From Actinomycetota bacterium (lineage in GTDB: Bacteria; Actinomycetota; UBA4738; HRBIN12), in contig DATBLA010000185.1 of NCBI GenBank assembly GCA_036555645.1, forward strand, positions 17,694 to 81,693: a stretch of 64,000 nt of DNA, written 5' to 3'. The position numbers were made by a program, and so were the translations under genes. Shown here piece after piece: positions 12,713 through 55,985 of this stretch. The notes beneath the pieces are model-generated. The model worked only from the letters and a program-made list of their open reading frames with translations, searched no databases and was not told the DNA's origin. Every line of letters begins with the position of its first letter. The first letter of the stretch is position 1.

Positions 12713-13714
12713 GTGAGGGTCCTCGGCATCGAGACCTCGTGCGACGAGACCGGGGTCGCCGTCGTGGACGACGACGTGGTCCTGTCGAACCGGCTCGCGA
12801 GCCAGACCGATCTCCACGAGCGATTCGGCGGCGTCGTGCCCGAGCTCGCGAGCCGGGCCCACGTGGAGGCGCTCAACCCCCTGCTCGAGCGTGCCCTCAA
12901 CGACGCCGACACGGACTTCGGCGACCTCGACGGCGTGGCCGTCACGGTGGGCCCCGGGCTCGTCGGGGCGCTGCTCGTCGGCATCGCCGCGGCCAAGGCC
13001 GTCGCCCTGGCGACGGGGGCGCCGTTCGTCGGCGTGAATCACCTCGAGGGTCACATCCTCGCGAACGCCGTCGAGCACGGCTCCGACTTGTTTCCGTCGG
13101 TCTGCCTCATCGTCTCGGGGGGGCACACGATGCTCGTGCACATGCCCGCCCGCCATCGGTACGAGCTGCTCGGGCAGACCGTGGACGACGCCGCGGGCGA
13201 GGCGTTCGACAAGGTCGCGCGGTTCCTCGGCCTGGGGTTCCCGGGCGGGCCGGCCCTGGACCGTCTGGCTCGAACGGGCGATCCCGAAGCGATCCGGTTC
13301 CCGCGTGCGATGGCGGACTCCGGGGACTACGATTTCTCGCTCTCCGGGTTGAAGACCGCCGTGGTGCGTCACGTCCGATCCGAGCGGGCCGCGGGCCGCG
13401 AGGTCGATGCCGCCGACGTCGCCGCGTCCTTCCAGGAGGCGATCGTCGACGTGCAGGTGTCGAAGACGATCGAGGCGGCGAAACACCTGAAGGTGGACAC
13501 CGTGCTGTTGGGAGGGGGGGTCGTGGCGAACACTCGGCTGCGGGAACGGATCGAGCGGGCGGGCTCGGAGGCCGGGCTCCGCGTCCGGTTCCCGGAGGTC
13601 TCGCTGTGCACCGACAACGGCGCCATGATCGCGATCGCGGGGGCATCGCGGCTGGCCAGGGGCGACCGTTCGAGCCTGTCGATCGGCGCCGACCCGAGCC
13701 TGGAGCTCGCGTGA
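12713..13714 (+). CDS. tsaD: tRNA N6-adenosine threonylcarbamoyltransferase (GTG start)
   Basis: VLGIETSCDETGVAVV...HLEGHI Kae1/TsaD signature. Confidence 0.9.
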   Translation: MRVLGIETSCDETGVAVVDDDVVLSNRLASQTDLHERFGGVVPELASRAHVEALNPLLERALNDADTDFGDLDGVAVTVGPGLVGALLVGIAAAKAVALATGAPFVGVNHLEGHILANAVEHGSDLFPSVCLIVSGGHTMLVHMPARHRYELLGQTVDDAAGEAFDKVARFLGLGFPGGPALDRLARTGDPEAIRFPRAMADSGDYDFSLSGLKTAVVRHVRSERAAGREVDAADVAASFQEAIVDVQVSKTIEAAKHLKVDTVLLGGGVVANTRLRERIERAGSEAGLRVRFPEVSLCTDNGAMIAIAGASRLARGDRSSLSIGADPSLELA

Positions 13715-14649
13715 CGGCCTACCTCGTGACGGGAGGCGCCGGCTTCATCGGGTCCCACCTGTGCGACCGGCTGCTCGCGGAGGGCCACCGGGTGATCGCG
13801 GTCGACGATCTGTCCACCGGCCGCATCGCCAACCTCGGGGAGGCTCGCGGCTACGGCAACGAGTTCACGTTCCTCAACATGGACGTTCGGGCCGAGGGCC
13901 TGCTCCCGCTGTTCGAGCGCCATCGGCCCGAGGTCGTCATGCACGTCGCCGCGCAGGCCGGCGTGGCTCCCTCGATCGAGGACCCGGTGCATGACGCGAG
14001 CGTGAACGTCATGGGTCTGCTCAACGTCCTCGAGTGCTGTGTGAGCACCGGCGTTCGAAAGATCGTGTTCGCGGCCTCCGGAGGGACCCTGTACGGCGAG
14101 CCGAGGCGACTCCCGGTGAAGGAGACGGCCTCCGGGCGCCCGACCTCGCCATACGGCATCAGCAAGAAGGTCGCGCTCGACTACCTCACCTTCTACGAGC
14201 GGTACCGGGGGCTCGCCTACACCGCCCTGGCCCTGGCGAACGTCTACGGACCCCGGCAGGACCCGACCGGCGAGGCCGGCGTCGTGGCGATCTTCGCCGC
14301 GCAGATGATCAACGGGCAGGCGCCGACGATCCACGGGGACGGCAACCAGACCCGCGACTACGTCTTCGTCGACGACACCGTTCACGCGTTCGCGCTCGCC
14401 GCCGAGCGAGGCGACGGCAGGGTCGTCAACGTCGGCACGGGCCTGGAGACCTCGGTGAACGGCCTGTTTCGGATGCTCGCCGAGATCACCGGCTTCGCCG
14501 GGGAGCCCGGCCAGGGGCAGGGTCGGCCCGGCGACCTCCGCAGGAGCGCCCTGGACCCCGCCCTCGCCTCGAGCGCGCTCGGCTGGCGGCCCTGGACGCA
14601 TCTCGAGGACGGGCTCGGCGAGACGGTGGCGTTCCTGAAGGGGATCTGA
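13711..14649 (+). CDS. NAD-dependent sugar epimerase (GalE-like), GTGA overlap with tsaD
   Basis: [12 protein letters not shown] Rossmann motif, YGISK catalytic YxxxK, 312 aa. Confidence 0.8.
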
Positions 14650-14650
14650 C

Positions 14651-15283
14651 CTAGCGGGGGGGCTGCCGCGCGTCGTCGGCGATCGCCTCTCGAATCCTCC
14701 TCAAGAGCTCGATCGCCGAGCTTCCCGAGGTCCCGGCGATGATCTCGAGGTCGCCCGAGCGCAGGGAGATCCGATCCGCGCCGGATTCGCCGCGCATCGC
14801 GAGGACCTCCTCGATGAACCCCGCGATGAGGTGGCGGACCTCCGGTGAGAGCTCGGCGACGGCGGACAGATCCAGGTCGATGCCCAGCGCCCCGGGAGCT
14901 CGAAGGGCGTCGGCGAGCAGGCGATCCGGCCGGACGCCGTACAGATCGGCGAGCGCGCAGAGCCGCTCGACCGAGATCCGACGCTCACCCCGCTCGTAGC
15001 CGGCGATCCCGGAGGGGGTGAACCGCCCTCCCGAGCTTCGGCTGGCATCCCGCAGGCTGAACCCCCGGGCCTCGCGAGCCCGGCGCAGCGCCCTCCCCAG
15101 GTTGCGCGTGACGTGCTTGCCCACCAGGTACCTGTCTCGTCGAGCGCGGGCGACCAAGGGGGGGATGCCATCATGCTCCACGGGCGTAGGTGAGGAATCC
15201 GATAGGTCGCGTAGCTCGCATACGCCGCGCCTCATTCCAACGACGTACGCCCGATTGACAAGTGCGCGCTCCGCGTTCGACAC
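14651..15283 (-). CDS. XRE-family helix-turn-helix transcriptional regulator (start may be internal)
   Basis: LRRAREARGFSLRDASR...YERGERRISVERLCALADLYGV HTH_3-like. Divergent from the histidine kinase. Confidence 0.55.
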   Translation of the reverse strand: MSNAERALVNRAYVVGMRRGVCELRDLSDSSPTPVEHDGIPPLVARARRDRYLVGKHVTRNLGRALRRAREARGFSLRDASRSSGGRFTPSGIAGYERGERRISVERLCALADLYGVRPDRLLADALRAPGALGIDLDLSAVAELSPEVRHLIAGFIEEVLAMRGESGADRISLRSGDLEIIAGTSGSSAIELLRRIREAIADDARQPPR

Positions 15284-15350
15284 TTGCGTGTCTCCTTGGG
15301 AGGCAACCCTGGCTCTCGGGCGACGTTAGAGGGGGAGGAGGAACCGATCC

Positions 15351-16913
15351 GTGGAGAACGCCCCCCCCAGCTTGAGCGTCGGCAGATCCGACCCGTTTCC
15401 CGACCCCAGCGACGTCGCGCGGTCGACCGCCGGATGGGTTCGGGCCATGGTCGGGGGACCGGGCGTCGCCGTCCGGGTCAGCCTGCCTGATCGGGCGGGC
15501 CGGCTTCGCGTGCAGGCGAGCTCGGGGACCCATCGGGACGAGGGGCGTCTGCGATCGACGAGACGCCGCCAGGCCTTCGCCGAGGCCACCCCCGTCAAGG
15601 TCGTGATGGGTTCGCCGCCCGAGCGCGAGCTCCACATCCTTCCTCTCGTCTCCGAGGGCGAAGCGCTCGGCGTCGTCGAGATCGTCGGCCCCGCCGGGCG
15701 CCTGGCCGAGCGCGAGGACGCGCTCGCCGCCGCCATCCAGCAGTCGGCCCTCCTGCTCCGCGCCGCGGCCGATCGGGCCGAGGTGGACCGCGCGATGCGC
15801 GGGATGGCATCGCTGTTCGAGCTCACGGCGCAGCTCATGACCGCGGACACCCCCCTGGATGCACTCCGCCTTGGCGTCGACCTGTGCTCGGAGGAGCTCC
15901 GCGTCCCGACGGCCGGGATCCGCCCGGACCGCGGCGGACAGGGGTGGTACCTGGCGGCCGCGGCGGGGATGGGAGCGCGCCGCAGGTCGGGCTTTCGCTC
16001 GACGGCACATCGCCTCATGGTCCACGGGCGACCCGAGGACGTGCACGCCTCGGTCGCCGGGGCCTTCGCCGACGCGGTCGGCTGGGACCGTGCCGAGGTG
16101 GTCCCCACCGGCGAGGCGCTCATGCTCGTCGCGGGGCGATCCAACGGACGGCAGGGGTTCCTGTCGGCCGTCGGCTCCCTCGTCGGGGAGGCGATGTCCC
16201 ACTCGGGTGATCTCCGCACGGCCAGGTCCAGGATCGAGGGTCTCGATCTGGGCATCGCCTGGACCGCCCACGAGCTTCGCGGGCCGCTCATCGGCGCGAG
16301 CGCGGCGCTCGACCACGTGCTGGAGTCGGTCGAGGGCGCGGGCGGCAACGAGCTGCTCCTTCGCACGCGTGGCGAGCTCGAACGGCTCACCGAGCTCGTC
16401 GGCCCGCTCCTTCGGTGGTCCGCGGGGTCCGAGCTGCTCGATCGCCGCCGCGTTGAGCTCGGCGACATCGTCCGCGAGGCGGTGGACGCCTGCGTGCTCG
16501 AACACCCGGATCACCGGATCGTCATCGACGTCACGGCCTCCGTCCCGGTTCGAGCCGACGCCCGCCAGCTCTCCGGAGCCATCGCCAACGTCTTGCGAAA
16601 CGCCCTCGCGTACTCCCCGACGAGCGCCCCGGTACGGATCGTCGTCGAGCGCGACGGCGAGCGGGCCTCGGTCTGCATCAGCGATCGAGGACCGGGGATC
16701 GCCCCGGAGGAGCGCGACCTGATCTTCGACCCGTTCGCGCGGGGTGCGGCCGGTGATGGGATGCGCAGCGGCAACGGCCTCGGCCTGTTCATCGCCCGGC
16801 GGGTTGCGCTCGCCCACGGCGGCGCGCTTCGGTTGCTGCCGTCGCGTCGAGGAGCCACGTTCTGCTTCGAGCTGGCGGTGGCCTCCGAGAGGAGGCACGC
16901 ATCCGCGTCCTGA
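15351..16913 (+). CDS. Sensor histidine kinase (N-terminal GAF-like region, HisKA, HATPase_c)
   Basis: H-box AWTAHELRGPL. N/G boxes ANVLRNALAYS...DRGPGI...GNGLGLFIARRV. Confidence 0.75.
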   Translation: MENAPPSLSVGRSDPFPDPSDVARSTAGWVRAMVGGPGVAVRVSLPDRAGRLRVQASSGTHRDEGRLRSTRRRQAFAEATPVKVVMGSPPERELHILPLVSEGEALGVVEIVGPAGRLAEREDALAAAIQQSALLLRAAADRAEVDRAMRGMASLFELTAQLMTADTPLDALRLGVDLCSEELRVPTAGIRPDRGGQGWYLAAAAGMGARRRSGFRSTAHRLMVHGRPEDVHASVAGAFADAVGWDRAEVVPTGEALMLVAGRSNGRQGFLSAVGSLVGEAMSHSGDLRTARSRIEGLDLGIAWTAHELRGPLIGASAALDHVLESVEGAGGNELLLRTRGELERLTELVGPLLRWSAGSELLDRRRVELGDIVREAVDACVLEHPDHRIVIDVTASVPVRADARQLSGAIANVLRNALAYSPTSAPVRIVVERDGERASVCISDRGPGIAPEERDLIFDPFARGAAGDGMRSGNGLGLFIARRVALAHGGALRLLPSRRGATFCFELAVASERRHASAS

Positions 16914-17653
16914 TCATCGACGACCATCGGCTGTTCGCCGAGGCCATCCGAGCGACCCTCGTGACCCGGGGGTTCGACGTGCGCGTCGCGACGACCGGCG
17001 ACGAGGGTGTCCGGGTGGCTCGCGAGTACGCCCCGGATCTCGTCCTCGTCGACGTCGGCCTGCCCGATCGGAGCGGGATCGTCGTCGGCAAGGAGATCCT
17101 GGCCGAGCTCGGCCAGGAGCCACCGCCGGCATCGGGTCGATCCAACGGCGGCTCCAACGGCAAGGCCGAGCCCGATTCGCATGAGCCCGAGGGGGGAGCC
17201 GAGGGCGAGGAGCCCGGCGTCCGTCACACCCACGTCGTCGCGGTCACCGCGCTCGACGACGCCAGGCTGGCGAACGAGGCGCTCCAGGCCGGGTTCCACG
17301 GGTATCTGATGAAGGACACGAACGTCTCGCAGCTCCTGAGCGCGATCGACGCCGTCCTCGCCGGACAGGTCGTCCTCCCGAGCCGCATCGCCCGCTCGGG
17401 ATCGGGCATCCGCGAGCAGGGCAGCGACGTGCGGCTCCTCGGGCAGCAGCTCACGCGTCGCGAGCTCGAGGTCCTCGAGCTCCTCACGGAGGGCGCGAAC
17501 AGCCGCGAGATCTCGGGCGCCCTCGGCGTGGCGCCGAACACCGTCCGGACCCACGTCCAGAGCATCCTGTTCAAGTTGCAGGTGCACTCCAGGCTCGAGG
17601 CCGCGGCGTTCGCCGTCCGGCATGATCTGGTCCGTCCGAGGCCTCGGTCGTGA
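16901..17653 (+). CDS. LuxR/NarL-family response regulator. No canonical in-frame start upstream of the receiver acidic pocket; the nearest canonical start is GTG 16961
   Basis: Frame reads IRVLIIDDHRLFAEAIRATL from 16901 (ATC) six nt after GAGAGGAGG. First ATG/GTG/TTG in frame is GTG 16961, which would delete the DD pocket. C-terminal LuxR HTH (REISGALGVAPNTVRTHVQSI). Confidence 0.6.
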   Translation: MRVLIIDDHRLFAEAIRATLVTRGFDVRVATTGDEGVRVAREYAPDLVLVDVGLPDRSGIVVGKEILAELGQEPPPASGRSNGGSNGKAEPDSHEPEGGAEGEEPGVRHTHVVAVTALDDARLANEALQAGFHGYLMKDTNVSQLLSAIDAVLAGQVVLPSRIARSGSGIREQGSDVRLLGQQLTRRELEVLELLTEGANSREISGALGVAPNTVRTHVQSILFKLQVHSRLEAAAFAVRHDLVRPRPRS

Positions 17654-17809
17654 TTTCGACGTAGTTGGGCGTGCTCCGGCGCGCTGTCTGGAGCCGTTGC
17701 AGGCACGTCTCAGGCTGGGGATGCTGCATGCGACGTAGGCAGACTACGCTGGCTGATGCGTGTCGGTGAGGTGACGGGCCGGTAGCGTCTTGGCCTCTGT
17801 GCGGAAGGG

Positions 17810-18493
17810 GTGGCGATGACGGAGCGGATCCGGGTGCTCCTGGCGGACGAGCAGTCGCTGTTCCGGGAGGCAGTCCGTGCCGTGCTCCAGAGCGAGGCGG
17901 ACCTGGACGTCATCGCCGAGGCTCGCGACGGGGTCCAGGCCGTCGCCGAGGCCAAGCGGGTCCAGCCGGACGTCGCCGTGCTCGACGCCAACCTGCCCAA
18001 CTGCGACGGCATCCGGGCCACGAAGCTCATCACCGAGAGCCTCGAGTCCTGTCGTGTCCTCGTCCTGGGCGTCGACGGGGACATCCGGCAGATGGTCGAG
18101 GCGCTCGAGGCGGGTGCTCGCGGGTTCCTCACGAAGGAGATCCCCCTGGCCGAGCTCATCGAGGCAGCCAGGAGCCTGTTCCGAGGGGAGACCCTGATCC
18201 CGCCCGGGATGCTGGGGCCGTTGCTCGCTCACCTCATCAACCGCCACCGTGAGGAGGAGGAGGCCCGCCGCCGGGTCTCCCGCCTCACGAAGCGCGAGCG
18301 GGAGGTGCTCGCGCTCCTCGCGTCCGGGGGGGACAACGACACGATCGCCCAGCGCCTCGTCATCAGCCCGGAAACGGCCCGCACGCACGTCCAGAACGTG
18401 CTCGGCAAGCTCGGCGTGCACTCGCGACTCGAGGCCGCCGCGTTCGTGCTGCAGACGGGGATGATGGCGGACCTGGTCGAGGCCAACGCATGA
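17810..18493 (+). CDS. LuxR/NarL-family response regulator (start GTG 17810 or ATG 17816)
   Basis: IRVLLADEQSLFREAVR...VAVLDANLPNCDG receiver plus TKREREVLALLASGGDNDTIAQRLVISPETARTHVQNV HTH. Confidence 0.8.
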   Translation: MAMTERIRVLLADEQSLFREAVRAVLQSEADLDVIAEARDGVQAVAEAKRVQPDVAVLDANLPNCDGIRATKLITESLESCRVLVLGVDGDIRQMVEALEAGARGFLTKEIPLAELIEAARSLFRGETLIPPGMLGPLLAHLINRHREEEEARRRVSRLTKREREVLALLASGGDNDTIAQRLVISPETARTHVQNVLGKLGVHSRLEAAAFVLQTGMMADLVEANA

Positions 18494-18774
18494 CCAGCGA
18501 GGTCCGTCAGCGCCGGCCGGTCCGGCGCGAGGGCGTGTGGTTGCGCGCGACCGCGGAGGAGAACGCGGTGTTCGACCCGGCCACCGGAGGCCTCCACCTC
18601 CTCAACGAGACGGCCCGCGCGATCTGGGAGCTGTGCGACGGCGCCACGACCACGGCCGAGATGGTCGAGGCCATCTGCAGCGTCACCGGCCTGCCCCGCG
18701 ACGTGGTCACCGAGGACGTCGAGCGAACGCTCACGGAGTTCGAGCGGCTCGGGATCCTTCGCTGGGAGGAGTGA
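18490..18774 (+). CDS. PqqD-family protein (RRE-type peptide-binding fold), ATGA overlap with regulator
   Basis: 94 aa. GLHLLNETARAIWELCDGATTTAEMVEAICSVTGLPRDVVTEDVERTLTEFERLGIL fits PqqD consensus. Confidence 0.7.
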   Translation: MTSEVRQRRPVRREGVWLRATAEENAVFDPATGGLHLLNETARAIWELCDGATTTAEMVEAICSVTGLPRDVVTEDVERTLTEFERLGILRWEE

Positions 18775-18776
18775 AG

Positions 18777-19058
18777 GTGGCGGCGTCCAGACCCCAGGTG
18801 CGTGGGGACCTGGTGGTGGTGGAGCTCGACGGCGAGGCCGTCGTCTACGACGAGCGCTCGGGGGAGCTTCACCATCTGAATCCGTCCGCGACCCTGATCT
18901 TCGGGCTGCTCGACGGCAGCGCCACGATCCGAACGCTGGCCGACGACATGTCCCAGGCATTCGGAGTTCCCCAGGAGGAGATGGAATCGCAGGTCAGAGC
19001 CCTCGTGGGACAGCTCCGGCGACTCGGGCTCATCGAGGGGAAGGCCGAGGTTGGCTGA
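18777..19058 (+). CDS. Second tandem PqqD-family protein (GTG start 6 nt after GGGAGGA)
   Basis: VVVELDGEAVVYDERSGELHHLNPSATLIFGLLDGSATIRTLADDMSQAFGVPQEEMESQVRALVGQLRRLGLI. Embedded in the longer track ORF 18537..19058. Confidence 0.65.
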   Translation: MAASRPQVRGDLVVVELDGEAVVYDERSGELHHLNPSATLIFGLLDGSATIRTLADDMSQAFGVPQEEMESQVRALVGQLRRLGLIEGKAEVG

Positions 19059-19956
19059 GCTCCCCGGCATGCGCGCCTACGATCCCGACCGCCCCGATCG
19101 CGAGTCGGAGCGGCGCAGCGTGTGCCTTCGCAAGCTGGACACCCTGGCGTGGGCGGTGGAGGGAACCTTCGAGCTCGGTTCGGCGCAGGTCGGCATCCGG
19201 ACGACCTCGGCCCGGGTGGGGGCGTGGATCGACGACGTGCTGGCCGATCACCGACTCGAGGCATGGACCGACGCGACGTACTCCCTCGTCATCGCCGAGG
19301 ACGCGCCGGGACGGCGCGGGTTCCACATCCTGTACCGGGGGATCGCGCCGCTCGTGCGGACGACCGATCTCGCCACCGTGGCACGCGCGTTCCTGATGGA
19401 GATGGAGCTGCACGCCCTGAGCGAGCGGCGCGACGCGATCTTCCTGAACGCCGCCGTCCTCGGTGGTCCCCGGGGGGCCGCGCTGATCCCGTCGTCCCTG
19501 ACGACGCTGCTCGGCTCGCGCCATCGCCTGGCCGAGCGGTGGGGTCTCGCGCTCCCGGGGGCCGGGTGGGCGGCCGTCGACCCGGAGACCGGCGATCTCG
19601 TCCCGGTTGCGAGCGGCATCGGGGTCCCCGCGGATGCGGTCGAGCAGCTCGTTGGACGTCCGGAGACGAGCGTGCCGGCGAGGTGCTTCGTCGACGATGC
19701 CACCCCGGTCGAAGCCGTGCTGTTCCTGGAGCGGGAGCGGCCGGCCGCCCCGGTGTCGAGGGCAGCCGGGCTCTACCGGCTCGCCTCGAACTGCCTGAAC
19801 CTGCCGCTCGTGGGTGGCTCGGGAGGCATGGAAGGCCTCGGCCACGTCGCCGGGCGGGCCGACCTGCGGGCGGTCGCCCTCGGGCCGCTCCCGGGCCTCG
19901 TCGAGGAGATCGGTGAGGCGATGGCCGAACCCGGCCGGGTACGCGCCCTGACGTAG
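19051..19956 (+). CDS. Hypothetical protein; distant paralog of the HPr-kinase-C-like protein at 53941 but without a Walker A motif
   Basis: Central region AIFLNAAVLGGPRGAALIPSSLTTLLGS aligns with FFAVHAAAAARGGAGVLLPGPPDAGKSTLVAALT of the 53941 protein, but GKS is replaced. Start overlaps the preceding PqqD stop. Confidence 0.4.
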   Translation: MAELPGMRAYDPDRPDRESERRSVCLRKLDTLAWAVEGTFELGSAQVGIRTTSARVGAWIDDVLADHRLEAWTDATYSLVIAEDAPGRRGFHILYRGIAPLVRTTDLATVARAFLMEMELHALSERRDAIFLNAAVLGGPRGAALIPSSLTTLLGSRHRLAERWGLALPGAGWAAVDPETGDLVPVASGIGVPADAVEQLVGRPETSVPARCFVDDATPVEAVLFLERERPAAPVSRAAGLYRLASNCLNLPLVGGSGGMEGLGHVAGRADLRAVALGPLPGLVEEIGEAMAEPGRVRALT

Positions 19957-21911: not shown

Positions 21912-22468
21912 GCGTGTGCACGGTCGTGGTCGGGCATCGCGAGGCCATGGTCGCCGAGGGGATCGCCGCGGCGCTCGGGCGCTCCCCCGGGATCCTGCCC
22001 GTCGCCTCGGCCTGCGAGGCCGGCGAGGTGCTCAGGCTCGGGCAGTCCGTCGACGCCGTGGCGCTCGATTCGGGCATGCCCGACTCCGAGCGACTCGCGG
22101 CGCGCCTGCGGCGCCACGGGGTCCGGGTCGTCATGATCGGCGGCGATCCGACCGACGACGAGTCGGTGCGCGTGTCGACGCGCGATCGCGTCGCGGCGCT
22201 CGCGTCCGCGCTCAATCCTCGCGGCGCACCCGCGCCGGTCCACGCCTCCCGACTGACCAACCGCGAGCACGAGGTGCTCACGCTGGTCGCGAAGGGGCTC
22301 GTCGGCAAGCAGGTCGCCAGGCAGCTCGGCATCAGCCCGAAGACCGTCGAGCGACACAAGACGAAGATCTTCTCGAAGCTGGGGGTCCCGAACGCGGCCG
22401 CAGCCGTCGGCCTCCTCCTGTCGACGAACGGGGGAGGTGACCGTTCGTGGACGCATCCTCCTATGTGA
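21908..22468 (+). CDS. Atypical LuxR-family regulator with degenerate receiver-like N-terminus
   Basis: ATGA overlap with capD-like gene. C-terminal TNREHEVLTLVAKGLVGKQVARQLGISPKTVERHKTKIFSKLGV LuxR HTH. N-terminus lacks the DD pocket. Confidence 0.65.
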   Translation: MSVCTVVVGHREAMVAEGIAAALGRSPGILPVASACEAGEVLRLGQSVDAVALDSGMPDSERLAARLRRHGVRVVMIGGDPTDDESVRVSTRDRVAALASALNPRGAPAPVHASRLTNREHEVLTLVAKGLVGKQVARQLGISPKTVERHKTKIFSKLGVPNAAAAVGLLLSTNGGGDRSWTHPPM

Positions 22469-24180: not shown

Positions 24181-24188
24181 CATTCAAG

Positions 24189-24545: not shown

Positions 24546-24600
24546 CCGCCCTCACGCTCGTCGCGATCCCGAGCCGGGCATCGCGCGCAAGGAGGTTCGA

Positions 24601-26470: not shown

Positions 26471-26472
26471 AG

Positions 26473-45108: not shown

Positions 45109-45151
45109 TCTGCGTGACCGACGATCCGCTCACATCGACCAGAGGAGACAG

Positions 45152-47019: not shown

Positions 47020-47073
47020 CCGGGGCGCGCCGCCGCCTCGCGGACTCCGGTCCACGGAACCACGATCTCCGTG

Positions 47074-48042: not shown

Positions 48043-48986
48043 TCGCACGGGGCTACCTCGAGATGCCGGTGTTCTTCGAATCGGCCGGCGAGACCCTGTT
48101 CGGGATCGTGACGGTACCGGCGGATGGCCAGGCGCGAACCGGCCTCGTCATCCTTCCGGGCGGTGGGACGCCGTTCTCGGTGAACCGGAACCGCGTCTCG
48201 GTCCGCGTGTGCCGCGAGCTCGCGGCGCTCGGTGTGGCCGCCTTCCGGCCCGATTTCCACGGGGCGGGCGACAGCACCGGCCCAAGCGAGAAGCTCGCCC
48301 TCGATCGGCCCTATTCGGCCGATGTCCAGGCCGCCGCGCAGACGCTCCGGCAGCTCGGCGCGGAACGGATCGTCCTCGCGGGCTCGTGCTTCGGCGGGCG
48401 AAGCGCCCTGTCCGCCGCGCCGCTCGAGGACGACGTGCACGCGGTGATCCTCATCGCCACCTCGCTGCACGACTACGAGATGGGCGAGCGCAAGAGCGCT
48501 CGTGCCGCCGCGAACTGGTCCATGGGACGCTACGTCCGCGAGTCGGTGCAGCCTCGGAGGATCCGTGGGCTGTTCACGGCCCGCTCCCGCCGGTCATACG
48601 CGAAATACGTCCGGGCCAAGCTCGGGACGTTCGCCGCATGGAACCGGATGACCGGTCGGGAGGCCGGGGAGGGGGAGCGGAACACGGAAGTCGTGTCTCC
48701 GCTGTTCGCCACACCGCTTCGGCGTCTCCTGGACCGGGGCGGTCGCGTCCTGTTCATCTTCGGGAAGGACGACACGTCGTACGAGGAGTATCTGGAGGCG
48801 GCCGCCGGACCGCTCGCGGACGTCCTCGGCGGGGATCATCCCGGCGTCGAGGTGACCGTCGTACCGGGCAAGATCCACGGGTTCCTCTCGATTGCGGCTC
48901 AGGATCTCGTCGTGGACGAGATCGCGCGGTGGATGGCGGCCGATCGCTCGGCCCCGGCGCTCGCACGACCTCGGGTGGAGGAGTAG
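48039..48986 (+). CDS. Alpha/beta-fold hydrolase, paralog type 2, copy 3
   Basis: LVILPGGGTPFSVNRNRVSVRVCRELAALGVAAFRPDFHGAGDSTG...LAGSCFGGRSAL. Confidence 0.55.
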   Translation: MIARGYLEMPVFFESAGETLFGIVTVPADGQARTGLVILPGGGTPFSVNRNRVSVRVCRELAALGVAAFRPDFHGAGDSTGPSEKLALDRPYSADVQAAAQTLRQLGAERIVLAGSCFGGRSALSAAPLEDDVHAVILIATSLHDYEMGERKSARAAANWSMGRYVRESVQPRRIRGLFTARSRRSYAKYVRAKLGTFAAWNRMTGREAGEGERNTEVVSPLFATPLRRLLDRGGRVLFIFGKDDTSYEEYLEAAAGPLADVLGGDHPGVEVTVVPGKIHGFLSIAAQDLVVDEIARWMAADRSAPALARPRVEE

Positions 48987-49787: not shown

Positions 49788-51637
49788 CCCGGCCGAGCTC
49801 CCCGGCGGGACCCGCGGGGCGCGATCCCGCCCGGGCGCCGGTGCGTGTGGCCCACGTCACCACCGTGGACGCGACGCTGTGGATGTTGCTGCTCGGCCAG
49901 CTGCGGGGTCTGCGCGACGAGGGGTTCGAGGTCACGACGATCAGCGCCCCCGGGTCCCAGGTGCCGCGTCTGCGGGCGGAGGGGTTCGAGCATGTCGCGT
50001 GGCGGAACGCCACCCGCGCGTGGGACCCGGCGGCCGACGCGCGCGCGTTCGTCGAGCTGGTGCGGATCTTCCGACGCAATCGGTTCGACGTCGTTCACAC
50101 GCACAACCCGAAGCCCGGGATCCTCGGCAGGGTGGCCGCTCGCCTGGCGGGCGTGCCGATCGTCGTGAACACCGTGCACGGCTACTGGGCCGCCCCGGAG
50201 GATCCCCCGCGGCGGCGGCTCCCGGTGATGTCGGCGGAGTGGCTCGCCGCCAGGTTCAGCGACGCCGAGCTGTTCCAGAGCGCCGAGGATCTCGCGTGGG
50301 CGCGCCGGCTTCGGCTCGTGGCTCCGCCCCGGGCGCGCCTTCTCGGGAGCGGGACGGATCTGTCGAGGTTCGACCCGGCCAGCCTCGATCCCGGTCGGCT
50401 CGCGGCGCTCCGGGCCGAGCTCGGACTGCCCGAGGGCGGCCTCGTCGTCGGGATGATCGGTCGGATGGTGCGCGAGAAGGGCTTCGTCGAGTTCTTCGAG
50501 GCCGCGCGCGCCATCCGAGCACGGCGGCGGGACGTCTCGTTCCTCGTGGTCGGTCCGACCGACCGGCACAAGGACGACGCCATCTCGGAGCACGATCGTG
50601 CCGCGTCGGGCGAGGACGTCGTGTTCGCCGGCTGGCGCTGGGACATCCCCGAGATGCTCGGCCTCATGGACGTCTTCGTGTTGCCCTCCTGGAGAGAGGG
50701 CCTGCCTCGTTCGCCGATCGAAGCGGCAGCGATGGGCAAGGCGATGGTGCTCTCGGACATCCGAGGGTGTCGCGAGGTGGCGCGGGACGAGCGCGAGGCG
50801 CTGCTCGTTCCGCCCCGGGATGCGGTCGCCCTCACGCGGGCGATCGAGCGGCTCCTGGAGGACGACGCGCTCCGCGCGAGCCTCGGAGCGGCGGCCCGAG
50901 ACCGGGCGCTCGACCGGTTCGACGAGCGAGCCGTGGCGCGACGGGTCGTCGAGACGTATCGGGACCTGCTGCCGCGGCCGGCCGTCGCGCCGAGGCAGGT
51001 CGATCAGCCCGGGCTTCGCGAGGTGGCGATCCGCGAGGCGACCCGGGCCGACGCGCCGGTCATCGCGTCGATGCATCGTTCGGTGATGAATCCCAAGGCG
51101 TTCCTGCCGAGCCTCGGCCCCACGTTCATGCGCCTGCTCTTCCTCGCCCTGATCGAGGACCCGGCGGCGCCGGTGCACGTGGCGATCCGGGAAGGCGAGA
51201 TCGTCGGGTACACGGCCGGGGTCGTCTCCATGTCGGGGTTTCGACGCAGGTTCGTCCGGCGGTACGGCGTTCGCGCCGGGATGTCGGTGGCGCCCGCCCT
51301 CCTGCGGCCGGGTGTGGTGCGCCGGGCCGTCGAGATCTTCCGATACCCGGAGGCGACCCGGGATCTGCCGCAGGCCGAGCACGCGTTCCTGGGGGTCCGG
51401 CAGCAGGGCAAGGGTCTCGGGCCCATCCTCACGAAGACGACGCTCGAGTCGCTCGAGGACCTCGGGGTGGCCGAGGTGAAGGGCTACGTCCAGGCGACGA
51501 ACGTCCCCATGAACAAGATGATGCTGCGCGTGGGGTGGGAGCCCCGCGGGGAGATCACGATCCACGACGGCGTGCCGAGCGTCCTTTACGTCTACCGATG
51601 CCATTCCTCATCGCCCTCGGAATCGGACTCGCGCTGA
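49772..51637 (+). CDS. Glycosyltransferase family 4 fused to C-terminal GNAT acetyltransferase domain (alternative start GTG 49784)
   Basis: N-terminal GT4 (HTHNPKPGILG...VFVLPSWREGLPRSPIEAAAMGKAMV) then about 200 aa GNAT-like region (HAFLGVRQQGKGLGPIL). Embedded in artefactual 1142-aa track ORF. Confidence 0.65.
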   Translation: MGAVVTRPSSPAGPAGRDPARAPVRVAHVTTVDATLWMLLLGQLRGLRDEGFEVTTISAPGSQVPRLRAEGFEHVAWRNATRAWDPAADARAFVELVRIFRRNRFDVVHTHNPKPGILGRVAARLAGVPIVVNTVHGYWAAPEDPPRRRLPVMSAEWLAARFSDAELFQSAEDLAWARRLRLVAPPRARLLGSGTDLSRFDPASLDPGRLAALRAELGLPEGGLVVGMIGRMVREKGFVEFFEAARAIRARRRDVSFLVVGPTDRHKDDAISEHDRAASGEDVVFAGWRWDIPEMLGLMDVFVLPSWREGLPRSPIEAAAMGKAMVLSDIRGCREVARDEREALLVPPRDAVALTRAIERLLEDDALRASLGAAARDRALDRFDERAVARRVVETYRDLLPRPAVAPRQVDQPGLREVAIREATRADAPVIASMHRSVMNPKAFLPSLGPTFMRLLFLALIEDPAAPVHVAIREGEIVGYTAGVVSMSGFRRRFVRRYGVRAGMSVAPALLRPGVVRRAVEIFRYPEATRDLPQAEHAFLGVRQQGKGLGPILTKTTLESLEDLGVAEVKGYVQATNVPMNKMMLRVGWEPRGEITIHDGVPSVLYVYRCHSSSPSESDSR

Positions 51638-52563
51638 CCCCCCTGCTGGCCCGCGTCGGGCGGGCGGCGGGGCTGGTCGATCACCCCTCGGGGAGCGCTC
51701 TCAAGATCCACGCCGAGCCGCGGCCGCTCACCGGTGGGATCGCGATCGTGTTCGCGACCCTGATCGCGCAGGCGATCGGGCGGGGCGAGGTCGAGTCGTG
51801 GACGGCCGGGATCGTCGTCCTGCTCGTCCTGGGAGTGGTCGACGACCTCGTGTCGCTTCCCGCGGTCGTCCGGTTGCTGGGCGAGGTGGCGGCCGGCGTC
51901 GCCCTCGCCCTCGCCGGACTGACGCTGTCGCCGCTGGGAGACGCCGGACCGGTCGTCCTCGCGCTGGCCGTGCTCGCGCTGGCGAACGCCGTGAACTTCG
52001 TGGACGGGCAGGACGGCCTGGCCGGCGGCCTCGCGACGGCGTCGGCGCTCGGCGTCACGGCGATTCTCGCCTCGCAGGGGTCCGTCGGCGACCTGGGGCC
52101 CGCACTCGTCGCCTCCCTGCTGGCGTTCCTCGTGTGGAACCGACCTCCGGCGAGCGTGTTCCTCGGCGACGGCGGCGCGTACGCGGTGGCCGGTCTGCTC
52201 GTCGTCCTCGCCTCCTCCGCCGCGACGTCGTGGGAGGCGCTGCTTGGTGTGCTCGTGTGCATGACGCCGTTCGTCGTCGAGCTCGTGAGCACGATCGTGC
52301 GCCGGCTCGTCACCCGATCGGCCATGACGTCCGGCGATCGCTCGCACCTGTACGACCTCCTCGCGATCCGCCTGGGCGGACGCGAGCGTTCCACCGGCGT
52401 CATCGTGGGGGTCGGGATCTGTGTGTCCGCCCTCGGTCTGCTCGTTGCCGAGATCCCGCTCCTCGGGGGCGTCGCGATCACGCTCGCGATCGCGATCGCG
52501 AGCGCCGTCGGCGTCCGCGTGCTCTGGACGACGACATCGAAGCCGGTACGGCGTTCGCAGTAG
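51598..52563 (+). CDS. Glycosyltransferase family 4 polyprenol-phosphate sugar-1-phosphate transferase (WecA/MraY-like)
   Basis: Multi-TM. NAVNFVDGQDGLAGG and VFLGDGGAYAVAG motifs. 40-bp overlap with preceding gene. Confidence 0.75.
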   Translation: MPFLIALGIGLALTPLLARVGRAAGLVDHPSGSALKIHAEPRPLTGGIAIVFATLIAQAIGRGEVESWTAGIVVLLVLGVVDDLVSLPAVVRLLGEVAAGVALALAGLTLSPLGDAGPVVLALAVLALANAVNFVDGQDGLAGGLATASALGVTAILASQGSVGDLGPALVASLLAFLVWNRPPASVFLGDGGAYAVAGLLVVLASSAATSWEALLGVLVCMTPFVVELVSTIVRRLVTRSAMTSGDRSHLYDLLAIRLGGRERSTGVIVGVGICVSALGLLVAEIPLLGGVAITLAIAIASAVGVRVLWTTTSKPVRRSQ

Positions 52564-52672: not shown

Positions 52673-53878
52673 ATGCGGGTTGAAGAGGCTCGGGACCGAC
52701 GTCCGGCGGCCCTCGGGGGGGCTCCGATGTTCCCCGACGGCCTGCCGCTGGCACGCCCGCGGATCGCCGATCCCGGCCGGCTCGCTCGCGAGCTCGAGCG
52801 CATCGTCTCGAGCGAGGTGCTGACGAACGGGCCCACCGTGGAGCGCCTGGAAGCCCGGGCCGCCGACTATCTCGGGGTGCGTCACTGCATCGCCGTCGCC
52901 TCGTGCACGACGGGGCTGATGCTCGTCCTTCGCGCCGCGGAGGTGTCGGGCGACGTGATCGTGCCGTCGTTCACGTTCGCCGCGACCGCGCACGCCGTCG
53001 CGTGGAGCGGGCTGCGTCCGGTGTTCGCGGACGTCGATCCGGAGACGCTCACGCTGTCCCCGCTGTCCGCCGAACGCGCGATCGGCGTTCGCACGTCCGC
53101 GATCCTCGCGACGCACATCTTCGGGGCGCCGTGTGATGTCGAGGGTCTGGCGGGTGTCGCCAGGCGCAACGGCATCTCGCTGTTCTTCGACGCGGCGCAC
53201 GGCTTCGGGGCCAAGCGCGCGGGGACGATGGTCGGCGGATCAGGGGCGGCGGAGGTCTTCAGCCTCACGCCGACGAAGACGCTGATCGCGGGCGAGGGCG
53301 GCATCATCGCGACGAACGACGATCTCCTGGCGGAGCGCTGCCGGATCGGCCGGAACTACGGGAACCCGGGTGACTACGACTGCCGGTTCGTCGGCCTGAA
53401 TGGCAGGATGTCCGAGCTTCACGCCGCGGTGGCGCTGGCATCCTTCGACGACCTCGAAGAGCGGATCGCCCGCCGCAACGAGCTCGCGGCCCGGTACCGC
53501 GAGGTGCTGGCGACCGTCCCCGGCGTCGAGTTCCCGCTCGTCCGCGATGACGACCGGTCCACGTACAAGGATCTGTCGATCCTGGTCGACGACCGCGCGT
53601 TCGGGTTGACGGCCGACGGCCTGGCCGAGGCGCTGGAGGCCGAGGGCATCGAGACCCGGAGGTACTACGCGCCGCCGGTGCACCGGATGCGCTCCTATCG
53701 AGCGGTGGCCGCGGGCGTCGACCTGCCGGTGACCGACGCCGCCGCGGCCGAGTCCCTGTCGATCCCGCTGTGGACCGACATGACCGAGGACCAGGTGGCG
53801 CAGGTCGGCGAGGCCATCCGCACGATCGGCGAGCAGTTGGGCCGTGTCGGCGCGGTCACCGCCTCACCCGACGACTGA
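52673..53878 (+). CDS. DegT/DnrJ/EryC1/StrS-family sugar aminotransferase
   Basis: FSLTPTKTLIAGEGG PLP-lysine region and overall 401-aa architecture. Confidence 0.85.
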   Translation: MRVEEARDRRPAALGGAPMFPDGLPLARPRIADPGRLARELERIVSSEVLTNGPTVERLEARAADYLGVRHCIAVASCTTGLMLVLRAAEVSGDVIVPSFTFAATAHAVAWSGLRPVFADVDPETLTLSPLSAERAIGVRTSAILATHIFGAPCDVEGLAGVARRNGISLFFDAAHGFGAKRAGTMVGGSGAAEVFSLTPTKTLIAGEGGIIATNDDLLAERCRIGRNYGNPGDYDCRFVGLNGRMSELHAAVALASFDDLEERIARRNELAARYREVLATVPGVEFPLVRDDDRSTYKDLSILVDDRAFGLTADGLAEALEAEGIETRRYYAPPVHRMRSYRAVAAGVDLPVTDAAAAESLSIPLWTDMTEDQVAQVGEAIRTIGEQLGRVGAVTASPDD

Positions 53879-53940: not shown

Positions 53941-54804
53941 ATGCCAACCGACCGCTCCTACCGTGTCCTCGCCTACGAGTTTCGGATCGCGTCACCGCGC
54001 GGCCCGGGAGCGTTCCTTCACCGGATGCTCGCGCCGTTCGAGGACGAGGTGGCGTCCGACGCGGCTCGGTACGACTTCGCCCGGGAGCCGTCCGAGGCCA
54101 AGCCGTGGGTCGTCTACCTCGACGGTGAATGCATGCGGCGCGGGACGACACAGGATCCCGTGCTCGAGTTCGCGACGTGGCACATCAGCAACCGGGCGAT
54201 CGCGTCCGATCACGGCTTCTTCGCCGTCCACGCGGCGGCCGCCGCCCGAGGAGGCGCGGGTGTCCTGTTGCCCGGCCCTCCCGACGCCGGCAAGAGCACG
54301 CTCGTCGCCGCGCTGACCCGGGCGAGCTTCTCCTACCTCACGGACGAGGCGGCGCTGGTGGACCCGGTGGACGGGCTCCTGCATCCGTTCCCGAGGTCGC
54401 TCGGGCTGGACCGGGCATCCGTCGAGGCGGTCTTCGGCCCCGGCGCGCAGCCGAAGTGGCGGACGGGCCGGCAGTTCCACGTGCGACCCTCGGATCTGAG
54501 GCCCCGCGCCATCGGGAGGCCCAGCCCCGTCCGGTTCGTCATCGCCCCCCGATACGAGGCGGGTGCGGTCACGGTGCTCGAGCCAATGAGCCGCGCCGAG
54601 GCCGTCATGGTCCTGGCTCGCAACGCGTTCCATCTGGACCGGTTCGGTGGGGCGGGGATCGATCTGCTCGGACGTGTGGTGCTGCAGGCTTCCTGTTATC
54701 GCCTGTGCGTGGGAGACCTGGACGACGCGGTCGACGCGGTCAGCTCGGTGGTCGAGGCGGGGCGCCGGAGACGACCGCGGTCCGCGCGTGAAGGGGCGAT
54801 CTAG
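53941..54804 (+). CDS. HPr-kinase-C-like P-loop protein
   Basis: FFAVHAAAAARGGAGVLLPGPPDAGKSTLVAALTRASFSYLTDEAALV resembles HprK C-terminal kinase domain as found in RiPP/lasso tailoring kinases. Confidence 0.55.
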   Translation: MPTDRSYRVLAYEFRIASPRGPGAFLHRMLAPFEDEVASDAARYDFAREPSEAKPWVVYLDGECMRRGTTQDPVLEFATWHISNRAIASDHGFFAVHAAAAARGGAGVLLPGPPDAGKSTLVAALTRASFSYLTDEAALVDPVDGLLHPFPRSLGLDRASVEAVFGPGAQPKWRTGRQFHVRPSDLRPRAIGRPSPVRFVIAPRYEAGAVTVLEPMSRAEAVMVLARNAFHLDRFGGAGIDLLGRVVLQASCYRLCVGDLDDAVDAVSSVVEAGRRRRPRSAREGAI

Positions 54805-55499
54805 AAGACGGCGTCGGTGCGGTCGCCGTCGACGTCGTCGGCCGGGCCGTCGTCGCCCTCGTCCTCCGGGTCGCTCCCGTCGTGCGTCTGACCGCTCTCG
54901 TCGCCCTCGTCTTCCTCGTCCCGGACGTCGCCGTCGGACTCGGGCTCCTCATCGGTCCCGCCCTCGACGTCGCCGACCGTTCCGCTGCAACAGATCGTAA
55001 GCTCGACGCCGGAGATGCCCTGATTCTGACCATGGGGACCGGACGGACACGGTGTGAACAGCCAGGTGTTCGGCCCGATCTCCTGCGGCGATGTGCAGCC
55101 GCTGCTGCCGCACTTCGAGGCCCCGTCGACCAGCGTGCACCCGCTTGCGATCGTGACCGTGATCGTTCCGGTGTCGTCGTTCGGCGTCCGCGCGCTTGCC
55201 GCGACGAAGCCGCAACCACCATCGTCTCCGGTCTCTGGGTCGATGCAGTGATACCCGTTCGGGTTCTGCTCGGGCGAGCACCCGCCGCCCGTGCTGATCT
55301 TGACGGAGTAGCAGGCCTCCTGCGGAGTCCCCGCGTAGGCCGTCGCCGGGTTGATCGTCTGGATAACCGGAGCGGCCCACGCCGCAGCTCCGGCCACGGC
55401 CGCGCCGCGCAACACCTGGCGCCGGCTGACCCCCCGTTCGTCCGAATCGACGTGCTCGACCACGCGTCCTCCGCCACGAGGATCGTCGTGTCCCCGCAC
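54801..55499 (-). CDS. Tat-signal secreted Cys-rich protein with long acidic C-terminal tail
   Basis: SRRQVLRGAAVAGAAAWAAP twin-arginine signal. At least 10 Cys in about 130 aa. D/E-rich tail (DEEPESDGDVRDEEDEGDESG...). Convergent, 4-nt overlap with 53941 gene. Confidence 0.5.
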   Translation of the reverse strand: MRGHDDPRGGGRVVEHVDSDERGVSRRQVLRGAAVAGAAAWAAPVIQTINPATAYAGTPQEACYSVKISTGGGCSPEQNPNGYHCIDPETGDDGGCGFVAASARTPNDDTGTITVTIASGCTLVDGASKCGSSGCTSPQEIGPNTWLFTPCPSGPHGQNQGISGVELTICCSGTVGDVEGGTDEEPESDGDVRDEEDEGDESGQTHDGSDPEDEGDDGPADDVDGDRTDAVF

Positions 55500-55609
55500 G
55501 GACCTACCGTACCCGCGGCACCCAGGGCGCAGATGCGTCGTCCAGCGTGTTTTTCCTACGGGCAGCGGCCGTGGCCGACGGGCAACACCTGGTCCACCAT
55601 CTCCCTTGT

Positions 55610-55864
55610 ATGGATACGCAACTCCGGCCGGCCGATCGGCCCGATCGAGCGACCCGGCCCATCCCGTTCACGCGCGAGCGCGCGGCCACCGAGCTGACCC
55701 GCGCTCGGAGCCAGCTCGCGGACGCGCTGGGGTCGCTGGAGCTCGCGCTGGTCATCCTCCGAACGCTGCCCGATGTGGGCGAGCGCTGGCAGCTCGTTGC
55801 CGCCGAAGGGGTTCTGGCCCGGCTCGAGGAAGCCCGGCTGGCCCTGGACCGCGCCGGGATCTGA
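55610..55864 (+). CDS. Small hypothetical protein (85 aa)
   Basis: High GC3 ORF, predicted helical. No recognisable family. Confidence 0.3.
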   Translation: MDTQLRPADRPDRATRPIPFTRERAATELTRARSQLADALGSLELALVILRTLPDVGERWQLVAAEGVLARLEEARLALDRAGI

Positions 55865-55943
55865 ACGACGCCGACTCCCTGCTCACCGCCCGCGGTGGTT
55901 CGCCGTCGCTCGTTTGACCCCTGGCAGTCTCGCCGATATCCTG

Positions 55944-55970
55944 TTAGCACTCACAGCAGCCGAGTGCTAA
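55944..55970 (+). promoter_or_regulatory. CIRCE element (HrcA operator)
   Basis: Perfect TTAGCACTC-N9-GAGTGCTAA 16 nt upstream of groES. Confidence 0.9.
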
Positions 55971-55985
55971 CGCCAAGGAGGGACA

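Follow-up and report, generated by a model that had tools for sequence, protein, structure and literature searches.

How a run of housekeeping genes that includes tsaD and the chaperonin operon groES-groEL (groESL) came to be opened up by some 42 kb of other genes is the question raised by a 64,000-nt stretch of DNA from an Actinomycetota bacterium (assembly GCA_036555645.1, contig DATBLA010000185.1, positions 17,694 to 81,693), hereafter called the window. An earlier note on this DNA had placed one accessory block of about 42 kb between tsaD and groES and had suggested that it may be an old lineage-specific insertion. The separation is as wide as described there, with tsaD ending at 13714 and the controlling inverted repeat of chaperone expression (CIRCE) in front of groES starting at 55944, 42.2 kb apart. 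The 42 kb probably represents this genome's allele of a clade-wide hypervariable surface-polysaccharide region arranged around a self-contained groESL cassette, and the region is common to a clade of uncultured soil Actinomycetota.

Genes were called across the window on the basis of the GC content at third codon positions (GC3), which gave 64 genes in a sequence of 71% GC, nearly all of them on the plus strand. Domains were assigned by Pfam and NCBIfam scans, and NCBIfam matches were judged against the curated cut-offs. Close relatives, all uncultured, were taken from a large protein collection (TsaD 74-84% and GroEL 88-91% identity), and their loci (L numbers) were viewed as 10 kb on either side of tsaD or groEL. 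A metagenome profile search with a RimI alignment returned at least about 30 informative clade members among the matches listed, and a genome-contig search with TsaD (GTDB species set) returned none above 60% identity among the matches listed.

Conserved Flanks and Boundaries of the Variable Region

The landmarks of the region in the window are the following.

534-13714, plus strand, left conserved core (Pfam; same gene lists on the contigs of relatives)
about 10782-11270, tsaE
12713-13714, plus strand, tsaD (Pfam TsaD, E = 8e-96)
13711-14649, plus strand, epi1, NAD-dependent sugar epimerase/dehydratase of 312 amino acids (Pfam Epimerase, E = 3e-56)
55911-57994, plus strand, groESL cassette
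55914-55942, plus strand, sigma70-like promoter (consensus match; directly abuts CIRCE)
55944-55970, CIRCE (consensus TTAGCACTC-N9-GAGTGCTAA, 0 mismatches)
55986-56288, plus strand, groES
56375-57994, plus strand, groEL
58187-63856, plus strand, glycan genes downstream of groEL (Pfam)

The left core runs in the order rplM, rpsI, glmM, glmS, acpS, nnr, alr, alpha/beta hydrolase, S58 peptidase, uracil-DNA glycosylase, tsaE, tsaB, rimI and tsaD, and is collinear at the nucleotide level with L087, L089 and L090 at 75-78% identity. The gene series is that of the mycobacterial core, as had been claimed, except that the three genes separating alr and tsaE at 8167-10782 (an alpha/beta hydrolase, an S58 peptidase and a member of the uracil-DNA glycosylase family) are missing in mycobacteria. 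The same three-gene insertion was observed in the relatives and in some Acidimicrobiia metagenome-assembled genomes (MAGs), such as L077, L038 and L037, which gives a hint of the affiliation of the lineage.

The accessory block had been drawn from 13711, the start of epi1, which overlaps the tsaD stop by 4 bp, but this first gene does not belong to it. epi1 directly follows tsaD in 16 of the 17 examined loci with tsaD identity of at least 74%, displays 79-82% identity among relatives, the same level as tsaD, and is present also where groES comes next, such as in L089-L091, L097 and L111. Nucleotide collinearity with the relatives passes the epi1 stop and ends at 14645-14652. On these comparisons epi1 is clade core and lies outside the variable block, so that the variable stretch is 14651-55910. 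The top NCBIfam match of epi1 is GalE-like and below the cut-off. The possibility that the epi1 of the window is a hybrid of epi1 and epi2 (both as in L089) left by a deletion was rejected, the gene matching epi1 from end to end at 81% identity, as against just 40% for epi2. Separately, P0127 (cluster of P0074; 245,532-bp contig) is a 629-amino acid member of a TsaD 90%-identity cluster, and it may be a tsaD-epimerase fusion, fitting the 4-bp gene overlap, or a gene-calling merge.

On the right side, nucleotide homology of 84% to L089 and L090 opens at 55911, at the -35 box, and closes 0-15 bp past the groEL stop. The CIRCE match is unique within the window, with 0 expected by chance, and by its predicted signals groESL is a compact, self-contained cassette with its own promoter and CIRCE. 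The alignment against related genomes that the earlier note had proposed therefore sets the boundaries at 14645-14652 on the left and at 55911 on the right. Two slots may be distinguished in the locus: slot 1 would extend from tsaD-epi1 to groES (window 14651-55910) and slot 2 from groEL to the downstream core (window 58187 onward).

Arrangements of the Locus among Relatives

Adjacency of tsaD and groES had served as the reference state for the synteny break. The linkage is deep and real, but it is looser than had been stated, and the gap varies widely across phyla. Among the matches listed, the distant loci (tsaD below 63% identity) comprised 21 with groES no more than 400 bp from tsaD, 37 with groES 0.4-9 kb away, such as Streptomyces with 3-9 kb, and 35 without groES within the 3-10 kb available. 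Judged from these gene orders, the compact tsaD-groES arrangement is the ancestral state. The deeper relatives L107 and L108 exhibit tsaD-(epi1)-groESL followed by a phosphodiesterase, an adenosine 5'-phosphosulfate (APS) kinase and IMPDH within 2 kb. The right core of the relatives consists of phosphodiesterase-APS kinase and then guaB/guaA, located 0.7-2.4 kb after groEL, with the phosphodiesterase-APS kinase pair at 12344-14373 in L176, 14616-16657 in L177, 13989-16015 in L178 and 16140-18067 in L107.

Differential filling of the slots was observed between these flanks. Slot 1 is empty and slot 2 filled in L089-L091; slot 1 only is filled in L176-L178, whose right core comes next after groEL; and both slots are filled in the window and in L179. 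Upstream of groES, L176, L177 and L178 each have 10 kb or more of glycan or surface genes that differ from one another, with tsaD beyond reach. The displaced state, in which groES does not come after epi1, is common to every examined member of the tsaD clade of the window. The genes that follow epi1 vary: L087 and L172 have Bac_transf and WecG among others, L173 has a kinase-like gene together with three regulators, and L092-L096 and L120 have further sets. The gene content at the slots differs in every relative examined (L087/L172, L173, L092-L096, L120 and L175-L179, 10 kb on either side each). In a neighbour-joining tree of TsaD, the clade of the window is uniformly displaced, its sister L089-L091 is not, and a second clade mixes both states.

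The same modules were found on opposite sides of groESL. The order in L089-L091 (TsaD 80%) is tsaD-epi1-groES-groEL-epi2-HTH(minus strand)-kinase-regulator-regulator, where HTH denotes a helix-turn-helix gene, and the regulator module corresponds to window 14651-18493 with identities of 66-70% for the HTH protein, 43-45% for the kinase, and 45% and 63-64% for the two regulators. Aligned by blastn, L089 1-11933 corresponds to window 2546-14645, L089 11992-14081 to window 55911-57994 at 84% identity, and L089 15067-15701 to window 14671-15308. The regulator module thus occupies 14671-18455 upstream of groES in the window and 15067-18983 after groEL in L089, so that it is precisely the promoter-CIRCE-groES-groEL unit whose position differs with respect to this module. 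In L087, L096, L100 and L172 the regulator module comes directly after epi1.

A second case is L179 (GroEL 89%), with glycan genes upstream of groES and homologues of the window modules directly downstream of groEL. The homologues of 20112-24545, 28714-30021 and 31458-33477 keep the order of the window, with identities of 64, 59, 39 and 61% for the genes of 20112-24545, 69% for the dehydrogenase, and 37 and 37% for the exporter genes. The genes of 24601-28694 are absent here, the homologue of 24189-24545 running straight to that of the dehydrogenase, and the PqqD and nucleotidyltransferase genes (30018-31461) are likewise missing from the interval that separates the dehydrogenase from the ABC exporter. 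As these modules sit downstream of groEL in L089-L091 and L179, they were already in the neighbourhood and were not imported between tsaD and groES. The earlier note had named intervening genes shared by related genomes as evidence that would count against an insertion; such genes were found in part, since L089-L091 run from tsaD-epi1 to groESL and carry the HTH, kinase and regulator genes after groEL.

A possible trace of exchange was observed in L173 (12436-13781) and L174 (12445-13790), where a second tsaD-epimerase copy follows the resident tsaD-epi1. The extra copy comprises TsaD residues 200-332 (the C-terminal approximately 134 amino acids) and a full epimerase of 314 amino acids, is 73% identical to the resident copy at the nucleotide level over 1.37 kb, and is followed by an HTH gene on the minus strand and regulators in the arrangement of the window. 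Its epimerase is 82% identical to that of L092 and 75% to the resident one, and the resident genes are 88-92% identical to those of the nearest relatives. The extra copy is best read as a recombination scar from the imprecise import of a donor tsaD-epi1-HTH segment, and this pattern of identities suggests that lineages may exchange the locus by way of tsaD-epi1 as the anchoring segment. Inside the block of the window itself, a pseudogene search detected no remnants of tsaD, epi1, groES, groEL, epi2, phosphodiesterase or APS kinase.

Composition, Mobility and Assembly

No integrase, recombinase, transposase or conjugation domain was detected by Pfam in any of the 41 block genes, no transfer RNA (tRNA) or transfer-messenger RNA was found in the window, and Rfam gave no family match. 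Direct or inverted repeats flanking the block did not exceed chance length, the only long repeats being internal, and these scans uphold the previous statement that integrase, transposase and flanking direct repeats are lacking. The GC content is 0.709 in the block and 0.710 in the flanks, the tetranucleotide correlation is 0.992, the plus strand carries 37 of the 40 block genes, and the cumulative GC skew climbs steadily through both block boundaries. The comparison of GC skew and codon usage that had been recommended therefore returned a native composition with only marginal differences.

Both junctions recur outside this contig. The right junction (DegT, two unknown genes, small open reading frame (ORF), groES, groEL, deoxysugar genes) is present on the independent Joint Genome Institute (JGI) contigs L001-L005, which come from separate samples; three of them span it fully from DegT to the genes after groEL. 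The exact TsaD and GroEL sequences of the window are found on several JGI metagenome contigs as well, and tsaD proteins of 99% identity lie on separate JGI contigs. At the left junction, the epi1-HTH and epi1-kinase types are both seen again in many relatives. The right junction on independent contigs and the left junction types in relatives argue against an assembly artefact.

Origin of the Variable Region

On the interpretation favoured here, the conserved run alr...tsaB-rimI-tsaD / groES-groEL / phosphodiesterase-APS kinase-guaB-guaA would have become the home of a variable glycan region. The block would be a mosaic of modules, which includes the HTH gene with the two-component system, a dehydratase-LuxR-tyrosine kinase group with the dehydrogenase and ABC exporter, Wzy-type assembly genes and decoration cassettes, and in sister lineages these modules would lie across groESL or give way to unrelated glycan genes. 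Because groESL has its own predicted promoter and CIRCE, it could sit on the left, on the right or in the middle of the region with its heat-shock control kept. Turnover, we infer, proceeded by homologous recombination among related lineages, with tsaD-epi1, groESL and the right core as possible anchors, and also by local insertion, deletion and tandem duplication.

An extension of this interpretation, conceivable but doubtful, is that groESL, as a portable unit within a glycan super-locus exceeding 50 kb, serves as an internal recombination anchor on both sides of which glycan modules are exchanged, and that its heat-shock promoter may read into the deoxysugar genes and couple glycan remodelling to the HrcA/CIRCE stress response. 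No canonical terminator was detected in a scan downstream of groEL, which would permit such read-through, and the intergenic fold is ordinary (z = -1.05).

Several points weigh against reading the 42 kb as one allele of a variable region. The window stops before any right core gene, and no relative covered the distance from tsaD to the right core in one stretch within views of 10 kb on either side. Both directions fit the data, as groESL may have moved or the modules may have moved across groESL, and the proposed recombination-anchor mechanism has a single footprint (L173/L174) and an analogy in its favour. The TsaD tree was built from one gene without support values, and state C occurs in two separate clades of it, which fits repeated events or transfer and also tree error. 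GC3 is 0.895 in the block and 0.915 in the flanks (p = 0.006), and the codon-usage difference B is 0.071 as compared with 0.054 +/- 0.008 for random gene partitions (p about 0.02); small differences of this kind are expected between accessory and housekeeping genes and do not suggest a foreign donor. In addition, most enzyme assignments fall below the NCBIfam cut-offs, so the sugar identities are guesses and the enzyme names are leads.

The strongest competing explanation, though an unlikely one, is close to that of the earlier note, namely one old lineage-specific accessory island of about 42 kb inserted between tsaD and groES and ameliorated to the host composition. Adjacency of tsaD and groES as the outgroup state, the native composition without mobility genes, and the examined members of the window clade, all without groES after epi1, agree with it. 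However, the first gene of such an island would be epi1, a clade core gene; homologues of the regulators and of the 20112-33477 module are found past groEL in L089-L091 and L179; relatives sharing the displaced state have unrelated genes after the regulators; and glycan genes also follow groEL in the window. The view of an old insertion as opposed to a recent mobile element thus holds for the lack of mobility genes, repeats and tRNA, for the native composition and for the clade-wide displaced state, and fails for the single inserted block.

Slightly less probable still is a relocation of groESL, in which the 2.1 kb cassette, maybe with a small ORF, moved about 41 kb into the glycan locus and nothing was inserted, the ancestor having tsaD-epi1-groESL followed by one long glycan locus and the move occurring, for example, by duplication and loss of the original copy. 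The homology to L089 covers exactly 55911-57994, the genes after groEL in L089 come after epi1 in the window, and an ORF of 84 amino acids is common to the window and L179, both with groESL in mid-locus, all of which would suit such a move. It leaves unexplained the wide differences in gene content between relatives and the state of L176-L178, in which the right core directly adjoins groESL and other glycan genes precede it. In the window, moreover, no remnant of groES or groEL was detected by epi1 and none of tsaD or epi1 in the block. Relocation is a special case of the variable region around a movable groESL cassette rather than a true alternative to it.

A recently acquired mobile island, such as an integrative element, a prophage remnant or a transposon-borne cluster, might be suspected from the large size, the accessory functions and the seat in a synteny break. 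It is very improbable, as no mobility domain, tRNA or flanking repeat is present, GC content, tetranucleotides and codon usage match the flanks, and the boundaries fall exactly at the epi1 stop and the groES -35 box. A metagenome assembly chimera joined at conserved genes is scarcely credible: the source is a MAG contig and conserved genes such as groEL can draw misjoins, but the right junction was recovered from separate samples on independent JGI contigs, of which three cover it in full, tsaD is 99% identical on separate JGI contigs, and the left junction types occur in many relatives.

Gene Content of the Two Slots

Slot 1 contains about 35 genes for glycan synthesis, export and decoration together with a two-component system and LuxR regulators. 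The histidine kinase, the LuxR regulators, a PqqD/RRE-like gene and many glycan genes, all part of the earlier description, were recovered by Pfam. The genes are the following.

14651-15181, minus strand, XRE-type HTH protein, convergent with epi1 (Pfam)
15351-16913, histidine kinase (Pfam)
16961-17653 and 17810-18493, two NarL/LuxR-type response regulators (Pfam)
19051-19956, plus strand, gene of 301 amino acids, family unassigned (no Pfam/NCBIfam match)
20112-21911, plus strand, PglF/CapD-type UDP-GlcNAc 4,6-dehydratase, membrane-anchored (Polysacc_synt_2, E = 1e-104; 4 predicted transmembrane segments)
21908-22468, plus strand, solo LuxR (Pfam GerE)
22465-24180, plus strand, chain-length regulator/tyrosine autokinase (3 predicted transmembrane segments; NCBIfam eps_fam 107 bits, essentially at the 108-bit cut-off)
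24189-24545, plus strand, small sigma70-region-4-like protein
24601-24843, plus strand, carrier protein (Pfam, acyl carrier protein matches)
24881-26470, plus strand, adenylating ligase (NCBIfam AA-adenyl-dom 398 bits, above cut-off; ligase_PEP_1, TIGR03098, 342 bits, cut-off 592; DltA-like match)
26455-27639, plus strand, BD-FAE esterase (Pfam)
27636-28694, plus strand, sulfotransferase (Pfam)
28714-30021, plus strand, NDP-sugar dehydrogenase of the UDP-ManNAc/GlcNAc/Glc type (NDP-sugDHase 407 bits, cut-off 190)
30018-30299, plus strand, PqqD-like (RRE-type) protein (Pfam PqqD, E = 2e-10)
up to 31461, plus strand, NTP_transf_5 nucleotidyltransferase (Pfam, E = 3e-30)
31458-32237, plus strand, Wzm-like ABC-2 permease with 6 transmembrane segments (Pfam ABC2_membrane)
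32239-33477, plus strand, Wzt/TagH-like ATPase (Pfam ABC_tran)
33477-43189, plus strand, assembly genes (Pfam, transmembrane segment counts)
33477-34346, plus strand, second sulfotransferase
39769-41154, plus strand, protein with 9 transmembrane segments, candidate flippase or polymerase, family unassigned
41151-42212, plus strand, Wzy_C polymerase/ligase-like protein with 10 transmembrane segments (Pfam)
43220-48986, plus strand, three tandem two-gene cassettes of about 1.95 kb (Pfam Hydrolase_4, frame analysis)
from 49011, plus strand, second deacetylase and a GT4 protein of 621 amino acids (Pfam)
51598-52563, plus strand, WecA/MraY-family polyprenyl-phosphate sugar-1-phosphate transferase with 11 transmembrane segments (NCBIfam wecA 68 bits, below cut-off)
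52727-53878, plus strand, DegT-type sugar aminotransferase (NCBIfam DesI-like 328 bits, below cut-off)
53941-54804, HprK-related-kinase-A-like protein (NCBIfam TIGR04352 122 bits, cut-off 200)
54801-55463, minus strand, orphan protein with a twin-arginine translocation (Tat) signal
55610-55864, ORF of 84 amino acids, no family match

The assembly stretch 33477-43189 also holds a polysaccharide deacetylase, three GT4 genes, a GNAT acetyltransferase and a GT2 gene, and neither the protein with 9 transmembrane segments nor the Wzy_C protein has an NCBIfam match. The Wzt-like ATPase scored 182-183 bits against the NCBIfam galactan and teichoic-acid export ATPases, below the cut-off, and the region 30018-31461 gave a weak TIGR04353 match only. 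Each of the three cassette copies consists of one hydr2_PEP-like and one hydr1_PEP-like alpha/beta hydrolase, giving six genes in total, whose best matches alternate between TIGR03101 and TIGR03100 at 58-94 bits as compared with cut-offs of 168 and 203. The direct-repeat families D1-D6 of the cassettes have a spacing of 1932-1973 bp and nucleotide identities of 60-76%. The second gene of copy 1 (44119-45108) is easily overlooked, an overlapping ORF in the same frame being far longer.

Slot 2 of the window (58187-63856) carries a short-chain dehydrogenase/reductase-type epimerase/dehydratase, a sugar C-methyltransferase, a glucose-1-phosphate cytidylyltransferase-like enzyme (G1P_cyt_trans 228 bits, cut-off 300), a PIG-L deacetylase, an NDP-4-keto-sugar 3,5-epimerase and a DUF4910/HTH_47 gene. 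By its predicted enzymes this set is a branched deoxysugar pathway, CDP- or NDP-linked, with a C-methyltransferase.

Some genes at the edges of the modules are less readily placed. The 19051-19956 protein has no homologue in any fetched relative locus. A minus-strand ORF of 187 amino acids at 18507-19070 passes the GC3 filter, displays an odd composition rich in serine, arginine and histidine, and has no homologues found; it lies antisense and is probably not a gene, in which case about 550 bp of sequence that follow the second response regulator are unexplained. The Tat-signal protein (54801-55463), with a cysteine-rich middle and an acidic tail rich in aspartate and glutamate, appears as a secreted orphan at the edge of the glycan locus. 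A search of 5.8 billion proteins returned just 6 homologues of it, all metagenomic, and for that reason the gene was of no use as a marker of the right boundary in relatives. The 84-amino acid ORF has a 47-50% identical counterpart at the same place upstream of groES in L179 (9195-9440) and may travel with the groESL cassette.

Predicted Glycan and its Decoration

From this gene content we infer that one or two heteropolysaccharides, either extracellular or linked to the wall, are made, polymerised and exported under regulation by the products of the locus. The gene set of a surface polysaccharide is present at the domain level, which includes an initiating transferase, four GT4 and one GT2 glycosyltransferases, Wzy_C, an ABC-2 exporter, a tyrosine autokinase-like protein and precursor enzymes, to which epi1 may be added. 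The WecA-like transferase (51598-52563) would start the chain on polyprenyl phosphate, and the GT4 and GT2 enzymes would extend it with amino or acetamido sugars (PglF/CapD dehydratase, DegT, GNAT) and a uronic acid (NDP-sugar dehydrogenase); dehydratase, DegT and GNAT together would yield a di-N-acetylated 6-deoxy amino sugar. Export may proceed by a Wzy/tyrosine-kinase route and by a Wzm/Wzt ABC route, and the presence of two export routes fits a mosaic origin.

The product would be decorated by sulfation, de-N-acetylation and carrier-protein-dependent acylation, for which the locus holds two sulfotransferases, two deacetylases, the carrier protein with ligase and esterase, and six alpha/beta hydrolases. 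The recurrent sulfotransferases (window 27636-28694 and 33477-34346; L176; L177) and the conserved APS kinase suggest sulfated surface glycans as a trait of the clade, and such glycans are unusual for Gram-positive-type bacteria. The regulators comprise the XRE HTH protein, the kinase, the two NarL-type regulators, the solo LuxR and the small sigma-region-4-like protein.

Comparison with Known Systems

Variable glycan loci at fixed sites include cps of Streptococcus pneumoniae (dexB-aliA), the O-antigen loci of Escherichia coli and Salmonella (galF-gnd) and the K-locus of Klebsiella. Like these, the present locus has housekeeping flanks, a glycan content that varies between related lineages, and genes for an initiating transferase, glycosyltransferases, a polymerase, export and sugar precursors without dedicated mobility genes, and exchange by flank recombination may be common to both, with one footprint here (L173/L174). 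The flanks are conserved as in such loci, with tsaD-epi1 in 16 of 17 loci, groESL at 84% nucleotide identity and the right core in relatives. Unlike them, it is flanked by genes of N6-threonylcarbamoyladenosine (t6A) synthesis and a chaperonin operon, holds the essential groESL inside the variable region at a varying position, and is known from genes alone in lineages of genus level or deeper (tsaD 74-84%), not from the serotypes of one species. Loci of this kind are familiar from work on capsules and O-antigens; the seat in an ancient t6A-chaperonin run, with an essential operon floating within, is the unusual feature. Recombination-driven diversity is reported for the group 3 capsule loci of E. 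coli (PMC10433991).

The flanks find their counterpart in the alr-groEL1 operon of Mycobacterium tuberculosis, which is reported by Bhat et al. (2017, PMC5335608) to be heptacistronic, contiguous and co-transcribed, with groESL1 as a sub-operon. Both have the series alr, tsaE, tsaB, rimI, tsaD and groES-groEL, and a groESL with its own promoter and CIRCE, given in the window by consensus matches. In contrast to the mycobacterial operon, the window has lost contiguity, with three genes between alr and tsaE, epi1 overlapping the end of tsaD, and 41 kb before groES. Read-through from tsaD to groES appears implausible, since these 41 kb include three minus-strand ORFs, two of them credible genes.

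The synteny break thereby becomes recognisable as a hot spot of surface-polysaccharide diversity in an abundant uncultured lineage of soil actinobacteria. With tsaD-epi1, groESL and phosphodiesterase-APS kinase as anchors, the locus could be retrieved from metagenomes and the surface glycans of these organisms typed. It may also play a part in interactions with phages and predators and in the aggregation of soil. How genomes evolve is, in its basic understanding, unaffected by these findings.

Further likenesses were observed with the exopolysaccharide (EPS) loci of the exosortase A (XrtA/PEP-CTERM) type, such as best matches to ligase_PEP_1, alternating hydr2_PEP and hydr1_PEP, and an XrtA-associated/eps_fam tyrosine autokinase, and with the 'HPr-rel-A' cassette, for which HprK_rel_A and a PqqD family protein are the best NCBIfam matches. 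Unlike in those systems, all system-specific matches of the window lie below the curated cut-offs. No exosortase or PEP-CTERM domain was detected in any window gene, and the locus differs from exosortase A EPS loci also in its actinobacterium-type host and in the triplicated hydrolase pair. The set of carrier protein, ligase_PEP_1-like enzyme and hydr1/hydr2-like hydrolases is odd for an actinobacterium-type genome. The PqqD and NTP_transf_5 genes (30018-31461) lie 24 kb from the HprK-related-kinase-A-like gene (53941-54804), and by their family matches the three resemble dispersed components of the 'HPr-rel-A' cassette, itself uncharacterised.

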